Shown: positions 52,466 to 54,863 of the stretch, piece by piece
Position numbering within the stretch: the first letter of the stretch is position 1
How the letters are laid out: the number at the start of each line of letters is the position of its first letter
Source: Desulfosoma sp.
GTDB taxonomy: Bacteria > Desulfobacterota > Syntrophobacteria > Syntrophobacterales > DSM-9756
Assembly: GCA_037481835.1 (NCBI GenBank)
Contig: JBBFKW010000010.1
Location: forward strand, 96,001-160,000
Direction: 5' to 3'
DNA length: 64,000 nt
Translations under genes and position numbers: made by a program
The notes under the pieces: generated by a model
The model's input: the letters and a program-made list of their open reading frames with translations, nothing else
Databases searched by the model: none
Told to the model about the DNA's origin: nothing

Positions 52466-52542
52466 GACGAACGGCCTGCGCATCACCTGCGGCGAGCCGA
52501 GCGCAGCGAGGCGAAGCCGTCAGGTGGATGCGCGTGTTAGCC
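52466..52542 (-). mobile_element. Integron attC site of cassette 2
   Basis: Minus strand GGCTAAC...GCATCCACCTG-[stem-loop]-CAGGTGATGC...GTTCGTC. Confidence 0.88.
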
Positions 52543-52564
52543 AGCCCGTTTTTGGCACGTAAAC

Positions 52565-52807
52565 CTACGCCACCTGAAAAGATTGACCAAGCGGCTGAAA
52601 CTCGGCCACTTCTTGCCTCTCCAGTTTCTGTCGAATTTGCTCAAAGCGCCTGACTGTCTCAGCAGAATACAACCGTTCACCACAGCGCAAACACACCTCA
52701 GCACGCACCGTAATCACCGCTGTATGGACACCACCTTTGAGCAGTTTTTCTACGTGCTTTTCGACCAACTCGCCACCACAGACAGGACACTTTTCAAAAG
52801 GTCTCAT
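52565..52807 (-). CDS. YgiT-type zinc finger protein (MqsA-like antitoxin), cassette 2
   Basis: CPVCGG...VCLRCGERLY; overlaps upstream DUF4258 gene. Confidence 0.85.
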   Translation of the reverse strand: MRPFEKCPVCGGELVEKHVEKLLKGGVHTAVITVRAEVCLRCGERLYSAETVRRFEQIRQKLERQEVAEFQPLGQSFQVA

Positions 52808-53112
52808 CTCTTTCTCCTGATGCGCCAGTCAATCCATCGATTGGGGTCAGGTCGGTACACAGTGACCAGCACAGCCCATTCTGTTTCGGAATTGTAAGCC
52901 CAAACACTGTGGATCGGCTCTCCAGCAAAATTGTCACCATAGATCAGGCAACTCGGATAAGGCTTGTCAGACGGATAATCTTCAATGATCTCGCCGCGTA
53001 GGACGCTGAAGAAGATTTCATCGAAGGATAGATGGTCTGCTTGTGCTTCTTCGTCGGCGTGGTCACTGATGCGAATACGGTTATGACGGATAGCCTCAAT
53101 TATGTTTTCCAT
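52804..53112 (-). CDS. DUF4258 domain protein (putative RNase toxin), cassette 2
   Basis: SDHADEE, GEIIEDYP.DKPYPSCLIYG..PIHSV...VTVYRPD. Confidence 0.85.
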   Translation of the reverse strand: MENIIEAIRHNRIRISDHADEEAQADHLSFDEIFFSVLRGEIIEDYPSDKPYPSCLIYGDNFAGEPIHSVWAYNSETEWAVLVTVYRPDPNRWIDWRIRRKR

Positions 53113-53183
53113 GTCCACGTGTAACTCTTGCTGAACAGATTTGGTCTCTATTGTATCCCGACATGGTAGAGAAGCACAGGGCT

Positions 53184-53252
53184 GGCTAACGATTGAGCTC
53201 ACCTGCGAGTGGCGCGTCAGCGCCACGAGTCAGGTGTAGCGATTTGTTAGGG
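53184..53252 (-). mobile_element. Integron attC site of cassette 1
   Basis: Minus strand CCCTAAC-AAATC-GCTACACCTG...CAGGTGAGC-TCAATC-GTTAGCC; cassette stop codon lies in R''. Confidence 0.92.
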
Positions 53253-53954
53253 CGCGTTGTCATCGGGTTTCTGTGCTGAGCTAAGCTGTTCGGGCTCTTC
53301 TTCGCGCTCTTTGCGGTAGCGCTCGCGGTCCTTACTCGTGAAGACGTCTACTTTTAGCTTTTGGAATCCCGTTGCGACCTTGTGAAGGTCACCTTGCAGT
53401 TTCTCGATGTTCTTGGCGATCTTCAGCAGAGGGGGCTCGCCGATGCGCTGCACTCCCTTCAATTCGGAGAGATCGATAACATGCTGTCGTTCTTTTGTCT
53501 GTCCGGACGCGCTTCTATAGCGGCTTCTGATGGTCACCTGGGTCTGGAGCTTCTCTTCAAAATGTTCATTCATGGAAGTCCAGAAGGAAAAGAACTCTTG
53601 TCCTGGGCCGAGAAAAGCTATCCCGGTGCTCAGCCCCTTGATGTTGCCCAAACTGTCGATAAGGTCACTGCTGCCTTTGCTGGTCGTATTTGCAGACCAC
53701 GTGAACGTTAGATCGTACGCGGGACCAGCACCGATGTTCTTTACGACTATATCAATCAGAGAAATCCATTCATCGCGCGGGCGATAAGAGACTTCAATGT
53801 GCGGCTCGGTTTCTGCTTCGCGGAGACGTTTCGTTTAGGACACGAGCCGGGCCGTGAGCCACGCATAAACGACCGTGGAAGCGGCCACGACGCCAGCAAA
53901 GAGAAGGTTGATAACCCCCGAATTCTGGTTGAGAAAATTGACGAGCTCGGTCAT
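53247..53954 (-). pseudogene. Cassette 1 gene: N-terminal TM hypothetical protein with an in-frame TAA at codon 40
   Basis: ATG 53954 just after the attI core; ...ARLVS*TKRLRE... (TAA at 53835-53837); frame continues to a stop in attC. Confidence 0.8.
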
Positions 53955-53961
53955 GTGTGCG

Positions 53962-53995
53962 CCCTAACTGTTTATTCTACACAATCTCCCTTAGC
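53962..53995 (-). mobile_element. Integron attI site
   Basis: Minus strand GTAGAATAAACA-GTTAGGG between intI and the first cassette; GTTAGGGCGC complements GCGCCCTAAC of attC1. Confidence 0.8.
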
Positions 53996-54139
53996 AAGAT
54001 GGTTGTTATAGCCCATTTAACTAGTTACCCATCAAGCTTCTCCTTGTCAAAAAGAAAAATAAGAAAACTCGTTGGCCGGAACCCTAATCTCGGATAGGCT
54101 AACTAAGGCGGGACCGGTGTTATGGAGATTGTGTAGAAT
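53974..54139. repeat. Perfect 16-bp inverted repeat flanking the attI-intI intergenic region
   Basis: ATTCTACACAATCTCC (53974-53989) and GGAGATTGTGTAGAAT (54124-54139). Confidence 0.85.
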
Positions 54140-54152
54140 CGCAAGGCTGAAT

Positions 54153-54863
54153 ATGGCCGCGATTGACACAAACTTGAAAGCCGTGCTGGAAGGATATGCT
54201 GACTTCCTGGGGGAAAAGAAGTTGGCCCCGCACAAACATCAACCCCACCTGGTACGGTGGGTGCGGCAATTCCTGCTCTATGCCAGAGAGCACGGTGGCT
54301 ACACTTTCGAGCAAACCTTGAACCTGTTCCTGAGCGCGCTGGGCAAACGTGCCGGCGTCGAGGCGTGGCAAATCCAGCAGGCTGCGGACGCCATTCGCAT
54401 TTATCGGTATCAGTATCGCGGCGAAGGCGGGCCCAAAGAGGAGAAACTGAAAGACGACAGCGTTTCAGGGAGTGACGAGAGGTTGCTCGATCGGCTTCGC
54501 GAGGTTATTCGACTGCGCCACTATGCAAAGAGTACGGAGAAATCCTACCTGCAGTGGACGCGGAGATTTCTCGCGTATCGCAAGCATGCCGGGCTTGCGG
54601 GCGAGCCCGCCGTCTCCGATGTGAAGGCGTTTCTCACCCGTCTGGCAATGGTTAAGAATGTAAGCGCATCGACACAGAATCAGGCGTTCAGAGCATTGCT
54701 TCTTTTTTTCAGGGAACTCTTGCGAAAGGACTTAAACGAAATGGGCCAGACCGTTGAAATCCAAGAACTCTTGGGCCACAAGAGCCTCGAGACGACGATG
54801 ATCTATACGCACGTCGCACGAGAACTGAAGACAAACGCACGCAGTCCGCTTGACGATCTGTAA
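54153..54863 (+). pseudogene. intI: Integron integrase, long N-terminal form, with in-frame deletion of most of the catalytic domain
   Basis: LLDRLREVIRLRHYAKSTEKSYLQW, FLTRLA...VSASTQNQAF, joined directly to IQELLGHKSLETTMIYTHV...SPLD; adjacent attI and attC array. Confidence 0.9.

Follow-up and report, generated by a model that had tools for sequence, protein, structure and literature searches.

A probably inactive integron with a core-deleted long-form integrase gene in Desulfosoma sp.

A 64,000-nucleotide stretch of the Desulfosoma sp. genome (assembly GCA_037481835.1, contig JBBFKW010000010.1), hereafter the window, contains an attI core, two gene cassettes with their attC sites, and a divergent remnant of a long-form integron integrase gene, here called ΔintI. 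Overall, the locus is very likely an inactive, degenerate pseudo-integron. The integrase has lost its catalytic core and no second intI was found in the genome, so the array appears to be fixed. An initial annotation of this DNA had described a frozen integron whose cassettes could move only with an integrase supplied in trans; the frozen state stands as the best reading, and mobility solely in trans is what would be expected of it. Whole-core loss is a common decay route of integrons. All coordinates are positions in the window; the minus strand is the cassette strand, and the plus strand is the bottom strand.

ΔintI lies on the plus strand at 54153..54863 and encodes 236 amino acids (aa) from an ATG at 54153, although an upstream TTG at 54072 would make it 263 aa. 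In an alignment (A1) to nine relatives of 426 to 462 aa from the IntI clade, to which it is 63 to 79% identical, it has a single in-frame gap of 190 columns (columns 239 to 428). Relative to the copy in Desulfacinum infernum, the deletion removes 570 bp, or 190 codons, with the junction at approximately 54752|54753. The lost part comprises the box I Arg, the GKGDKDR hairpin with its Lys, the IntI-specific patch (ALARKYP...WGWQYVFP), and the HTLRHS motif (H-x-x-R), and LGH and IYTH are the only catalytic motifs left. The alignment gap thus bears out the proposed absence of the R, H-x-x-R, and I2 parts, and the mapped deletion accounts for the in-frame fusion of the N-domain to LGH...TMIYTH. No microhomology was found at the junction in the comparison with the D. 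infernum copy, so a deletion mechanism cannot be named.

The best NCBIfam model for ΔintI is the integron integrase model TIGR02249, which scores 108.4 bits, below the curated cut-off of 265, and matches only with model positions 1 to 87 and 281 to 315; XerC scores 33.7 bits and XerD 32.1. Whether the protein would group with XerC/D rather than with IntI had been put forward as a critical test, and the outcome (108 bits versus 34 for XerC, with relatives scoring 426 bits) falls on the IntI side. Pfam places PF13495, an N-terminal SAM-like domain, on residues 138 to 223 of the 263-aa form, and PF00589 on the last 35 residues only (28.3 bits). Longer relatives are numerous (1275 at E <= 0.001 among 8000 candidates examined), and the best of them are 426 aa in length, with identities of 77% by BLASTP and 79% in alignment A1. 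Judged by its sequence, ΔintI is thus a derivative of IntI rather than a functional member of that family.

The N-terminal extension of about 100 aa reported for this protein is real and somewhat longer. TIGR02249 scores 425.8 and 419.5 bits on two full-length relatives (P0001 and P0005) and covers only their residues 111 to 426, which indicates that an extension of approximately 110 aa is a feature of the whole clade. In an AlphaFold (AF2) model of ΔintI, four-helix bundles are predicted at residues 1 to 92 and 106 to 189, with block values of the predicted local distance difference test (pLDDT) of about 64 to 89, while the tail after the junction has a pLDDT of 30 to 37. In fold comparisons, chains of VchIntIA (PDB 2a3v) rank highest, over 87 to 88 columns only, which correspond to the N-terminal domain. 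The modelled helix pattern of the extension (54153-54480, residues 1 to 110) resembles that of the core-binding domain that follows it, and hhalign aligns the extension colinearly with the SAM-like domain over 69 columns (E 0.0016, probability 16%). This alignment is too weak for a domain duplication to be claimed from sequence alone, but the model is consistent with the extension possibly being a tandem duplication of the DNA-binding domain.

A search of the genome for an intact intI scored all 12 of 12 candidates with TIGR02249 and found none above the cut-off. Similarly, when P0001 was searched against the genome (G000), IntI-level identity was found at this locus only. The assembly consists of 38 contigs and is 99.37% complete, with an estimated contamination of 1.66%.

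Decay of IntI is, as far as the gene sequences indicate, general in this lineage. The copy of the closest relative, D. infernum (P0139), is itself degenerate: it has a late start, reads HTLPHS instead of HTLRHS, and ends just past the Tyr. Among metagenomic relatives of the long form, several (P0124, P0125, P0137, P0196, and others) have lost other internal segments in frame, with end points that differ, N-terminal-only forms are many and occur also on long contigs, and IntI fragments are found in four further genomes (G003, G006, G007, and G008). The host and Desulfacinum belong to one GTDB family.

The sites on which an integrase would act are well preserved. The attI core GTTAGGG is present as annotated at 53962-53968 on the cassette strand (CCCTAAC on the plus strand) by direct reading of the sequence, and its G|TT crossover is the start of cassette 1. 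This predicted core and the intI ATG are 185 bp apart and on opposite strands, as for an attI beside a divergent intI. Both attC sites are also on the minus strand: attC1 (69 nt, 53184-53252) belongs to cassette 1, and attC2 (77 nt, 52466-52542) is the terminal attC of the array. Because Rfam has no attC family (a scan of the window at the gathering threshold returned only one tRNA and two group II intron domain V matches), we built a covariance model, R1, for the purpose. Candidates were harvested as attC-like hairpins beside IntI genes in other genomes, and 26 sites of no more than 76 nt each were picked for training from approximately 35 well-formed ones; the window sites were left out, as were those of three loci (L024 to L026) whose strand was not assignable. 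An initial hairpin scan, built ad hoc on AAC...GTT and a constrained fold, also recovered both sites, but it was unspecific, with 63 candidates in 4 kb, and was used solely to gather candidates in relatives.

With filters off and the entire 64 kb searched, R1 returned both sites at coordinates identical to those annotated, attC2 with 38.8 bits (E 9e-7) and attC1 with 32.3 bits (E 3e-5). Scoring by an attC covariance model had been set beforehand as a possible refutation of the integron, and both sites score well clear of the remaining matches: of 13 at E <= 10, the third-best reaches 11.6 bits (E 2). The R1 alignment itself has a consistent 25-pair structure, in which 83.4% of cells pair, compared with 68.9% in shuffles, and two-sided changes occur at 20 pairs; none of 500 shuffles reached the observed pairing or covariation. 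When folded, the bottom strand of either site shows an R box and an L box separated by an unpaired spacer, and its 3' arm carries two extrahelical bases, T..T in attC1 and T..G in attC2; the sites of relatives share this layout. The fold of attC1 as bottom-strand DNA has an energy of -20.5 kcal/mol (z -3.66), whereas attC2 has a z of only -0.96, and the fold z-scores alone are modest for both. The R' of attC2, GTTCGTC, departs from GTTRRRY. The complementarity between each cassette's start and its own R'' end, described as a footprint of circular-cassette insertion, was found for 10 bp in cassette 1 (53246-53255 and 53959-53968) and 12 bp in cassette 2 (52536-52547 and 53179-53190).

Two further attC sites are present in the genome, one homologous to attC2 on contig C26, beside an intact recB, and one on C11 with a single cassette. 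The latter (L112, 9728-9788, minus strand) is solitary and has the best attC score in the genome, at 48 bits; it is a secondary site, with an R'' reading AAT rather than AAC, and the gene ahead of it encodes a 210-aa zinc-ribbon/DUF4352 protein; a sigma-54 regulator and a Lon-like gene lie on either side. Several contigs of three metagenome runs (X2, X3, and X4) match the attC2 stretch alone (52470-52542) with 2 to 4 differences and then continue into unrelated sequence, and an 85% match to attC2 was found in another genome (G003:C22), which indicates that attC2-like sites occur in other contexts in the same communities.

Cassette 1 (778 bp, 53190..53967, minus strand) carries an open reading frame (ORF) at 53954..53247, a gene for a membrane-anchored protein from an uncharacterized family of 229 to 237 aa with 107 database relatives. 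Codon 40 of this gene is a premature in-frame TAA (53835-53837), a GAA-to-TAA nonsense change at a position that is Glu in all seven aligned homologues. The annotation of two complete cassettes therefore holds for cassette 1 as a unit but not for its gene, which is not intact. The same cassette, with GAA at codon 40, is found at about 96% identity on an unrelated metagenome contig (L114), where it stands behind a different attC. The homology begins at GTTAGGGCGC (GTTAGGG..., the attI core) and stops at ...CGTT of attC1, with none on either side. Since both bounds are G/TT crossovers, the same circular cassette was apparently inserted at two different sites, and sequence comparison thus identifies cassette 1 as a mobile unit bounded at G|TT. 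Among 80 metagenome loci with relatives of the cassette 1 gene, 17 contain attC matches (27 in all, every one on the gene strand), and in 15 of the 80 an attC lies directly 3' of the homologue. The cassette-precise match implies that these cassettes circulated in a wider gene pool.

Cassette 2 (718 bp, 52472..53189, minus strand) contains a predicted type II toxin-antitoxin pair. The toxin-like gene (53112..52804, minus strand) belongs to the DUF4258 family (PF14076, 78.1 bits; cut-off, 25), and the antitoxin gene (52807..52565, minus strand) encodes an MqsA-like YgiT-type zinc finger (TIGR03831, 38.3 bits; cut-off, 20.2). The two genes overlap by 4 bp, and both families are above their cut-offs, while PF15731, MqsA, matches the antitoxin with 27.3 bits, under its cut-off of 30. 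Homologous pairs, 66 to 73% identical, are present in 15 of 95 other genomes of the order, in one of which (G023) the pair is about 1 kb from an IntI remnant; a sixteenth genome matches the attC2-like site only. Szekeres et al. are said to have described toxin-antitoxin cassettes in chromosomal integrons in 2007. As the distal cassette, the pair would penalize loss of the array and may thus have a stabilizing role.

Between attI and intI, the intergenic region (53975..54138) has a perfect 15-bp inverted repeat at its two ends. Of its arms, 53975-53989 is separated from the attI core by 6 bp, and 54124-54138 lies 14 bp before the intI ATG; the window holds two such matches, against 0.10 expected by chance. 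D. infernum has the intI-proximal arm too, and upstream-extended ORFs of two relatives (P0003 and P0007) suggest that it precedes their genes as well. A role of the repeat as operator or as accessory integrase-binding site is possible.

Several points weigh against an inactive element. The ΔintI frame is open across 708 nt, and at positions invariant in the nine relatives it has 3 private substitutions, within the range of 0 to 9 seen in intact relatives, and thus shows no trace of prolonged neutral drift; either the deletion is recent or the remnant is under constraint. An intI might lie on unassembled DNA, the genome being a draft of 38 contigs, and the genome-wide attC scan scored 150 of 2363 first-look candidates. 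A simple sigma-70 scan for a Pc promoter found no sites in 52300-54500, where shuffles gave a mean of 0.9, although such a scan may not suit this organism.

The open frame across the junction and the few private substitutions would also suit a remnant that is not a pseudogene but has been domesticated as a working noncatalytic protein, which would bind attI or attC DNA with its two tandem core-binding domains and repress Pc or PintI or block foreign integrases. On the same side, an inverted repeat surrounds the attI-intI intergenic region, both N-terminal bundles are modelled at the pLDDT given above, in-frame internal deletions recur in several relatives, and the sequence is identical in contigs from four runs of three studies. 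However, the exact 236-aa protein is unique; its cluster at 90% identity has one member on one contig, the window's own. Furthermore, the relatives' deletions end differently and N-terminal-only forms are common, a pattern of random decay in which one deletion in three would be in frame, and the adjacent cassette gene, the nearby copy of recB, and the flanking introns are decaying as well. Domestication is thus improbable. A bolder version, in which the remnant is an attI/attC-binding protein that silences the platform or shields the array from foreign integrases, and in which core-deleted variants of the long clade form a recurrent functional class, is slightly less probable still.

It is also quite improbable that an assembly artefact or chimeric join accounts for the deletion and that the true genome has a full-length intI, as might be suspected of a 38-contig draft with some estimated contamination and of mosaic surroundings with segments 94 to 96% identical to another genus. 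Contigs from X3 and X4, metagenome runs from a study other than that of the possible source runs X1 and X2, match the window with no differences and no gaps, over 52489-54833 in X3 and over 52511-53176 and 53147-54833 in X4. Together they span both cassettes, the premature stop, and the deletion junction. Junction-spanning contigs come from four runs in three studies, with no differences, and no joint or insertion at 54752/54753 was reported in the run contigs. The recurrence of the same junction in the independent X3 and X4 contigs shows that it is not an assembly artefact and that the deletion is real in the DNA; since the read-out consists of assembled contigs, not raw reads, a rare full-length allele of intI could hide.

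Other joints in these contigs were set aside. One from 52439 to 53964, in a single X4 contig with a side of 23, would skip both cassettes, but it is off the G|TT points and its side is below 30. Another, from 53986 to 54180 (X3 and X4, side 23), was not used and probably stems from the 15-bp inverted repeat. For a joint from 51269 to 55601 (X4, side 40), loss of the integron was considered, but a further copy of the group II intron family explains it best.

There is next to no chance that the locus is simply an Xer-type recombinase remnant beside ordinary palindromic repeats or terminators, for although both hairpins follow convergent gene ends and the attC2 fold is weak, the covariance scores of 32 to 39 bits stand against a background of at most 11.6, the extrahelical bases are on the expected arm, the L114 homology is cassette-precise, and the protein has TIGR02249 as its best match and 79% identity to a true IntI.

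For the inactive integron, which remains the favored reading, the following course of events is proposed. While the platform worked, the long-form IntI would have recombined attC hairpins, folded from the bottom strand, with attI, so that circular cassettes entered at G|TT; the two cassettes would have been captured in this way. The IntI-specific additional domain reads the extrahelical bases. The 570-bp in-frame deletion would then have taken residues 201 to 390 of the 426-aa integrase, leaving at the N terminus the two predicted helical bundles for DNA binding and, after them, an orphan tail of 36 residues with LGH and the Tyr. Such a protein should be unable to cleave DNA, and without a second intI the array would be fixed, while the attC sites, structurally intact, should stay substrates for a foreign IntI. 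The gene of the attI-proximal cassette would have gained its nonsense codon afterwards. The locus thus offers a clear case of probable integron death, in which sites and cassettes outlast the enzyme, the distal toxin-antitoxin cassette stays, and the first cassette gene decays.

The surroundings are those of a genomic island. Synteny with the same genus (G001 and G002, 77% identity) stops at the 3' end of a tRNA-Cys gene (42289-42363), downstream of which is a mosaic island of at least 20 kb that includes the integron and whose far end was not found. The recQ of the island is 95 to 96% identical to that of D. infernum, and the island also holds an MrfA zinc-binding fragment and a UvrD-like helicase. 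Next to the integron, a recB 3' fragment (approximately 51155-52301, plus strand) is a frameshifted pseudogene read in three frames and is 94 to 95% identical to D. infernum recB. The D. infernum (G005) integron is likewise downstream of recB, with two attC matches (L021, G005:C31); there, the attC sites (9201-9414) and intI (14117-15344) are about 4.7 kb apart. The genome has two other recB genes. An intact one on C26 (L113, 6222-9878, minus strand; 1218 aa) is 88 to 93% identical to the window fragment, and the native one on C19 (38658-39987) is 71 to 74% identical. On C26, the attC homologous to attC2 follows recB after about 164 bp, forming a homologous recB-attC junction; after it come a 143-aa ORF, an ISL3 transposase fragment, and a parA-like gene. 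These similarities suggest that a Desulfacinum-like donor supplied the recB-integron junction as one block.

Two remnants of group II intron domain V, identified with Rfam on the minus strand at 50852-50933 and 55518-55594 (43.2 and 50.6 bits), flank the recB-fragment/integron block in the same orientation. Both introns look like ORF-less or internally deleted copies. By our own reading, an ORF at 50727-51125 seems to start like an intron reverse transcriptase and to run straight into domain V; Pfam gave no match for this ORF. The stretch at about 55463-55604 is present in many copies in D. infernum and also on several contigs of the Desulfosoma genome.

A literature search on integrons in Desulfobacterota, as far as the texts retrieved extend, gave general papers only, but the elements of this locus have published counterparts. 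The part of Nemergut et al. 2008 (PMC2426708) available to us reports a predicted loss of function in nearly one third of intI genes, through stop codons, frameshifts, or major insertions or deletions. This decay is scattered over lineages, with some strains keeping a functional orthologue and others a broken one. The case described here is alike in its major deletion and in having a closest relative whose copy is broken differently; it differs from the pseudogenes described in that portion of the paper in the clean in-frame loss of the entire catalytic core, with an open frame of 236 aa remaining. The same excerpts describe a clade 15 whose members share an N-terminal "gene fusion" and are about 120 aa longer than other IntI proteins. 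The 426-aa relatives of ΔintI, with approximately 110 residues before the TIGR02249 model, can be likened to clade 15 by this description, although the model here shows the extension as a second bundle of four helices, similar to the core-binding domain.

The array can also be compared with the attC-site clusters without an integron integrase (CALIN) of Cury et al. 2016 (PMC4889954), where, in the sections at hand, intI pseudogenes were near 15 of 279 CALIN and it is argued that CALIN cassettes may still be mobilized by integrases in trans. Two attC sites with no IntI-specific C-terminal domain nearby make the locus similar, a likeness that is one of features and not an IntegronFinder call. 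Unlike the CALIN so described, it keeps attI and the N-terminal half of intI in place, so that an origin by integrase decay is directly visible. Structurally, the best match of the modelled remnant is the VchIntIA-VCRbs complex (PDB 2a3v; E 6e-3, root mean square deviation of 2.1 Å, 30% identity over 88 columns). The attC bottom strands resemble that complex in having two extrahelical bases on the expected arm, but only the N-terminal domain of the protein matches, whereas the catalytic domain and the patch for the extrahelical bases are deleted here. Toxin-antitoxin cassettes in chromosomal integrons are likewise treated in the accessible text of Richard et al. 2024 (PMC13108822), and the pair described here similarly forms a cassette within an array; it differs in its predicted members, a DUF4258 protein and a YgiT-type zinc finger in which the HTH part of MqsA is missing.

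There is thus little that is new in principle, since intI pseudogenes and the long IntI clade are already published. The locus is useful as an annotation, as a pseudo-integron or a CALIN whose origin is known, in a lineage of thermophilic sulfate reducers, and it may provide a test case of attC sites without a resident integrase as substrates for integrases in trans. Taken with the pseudogenes and the long clade of Nemergut et al. and the CALIN of Cury et al., as far as these are described in the portions cited, it belongs to a known kind.

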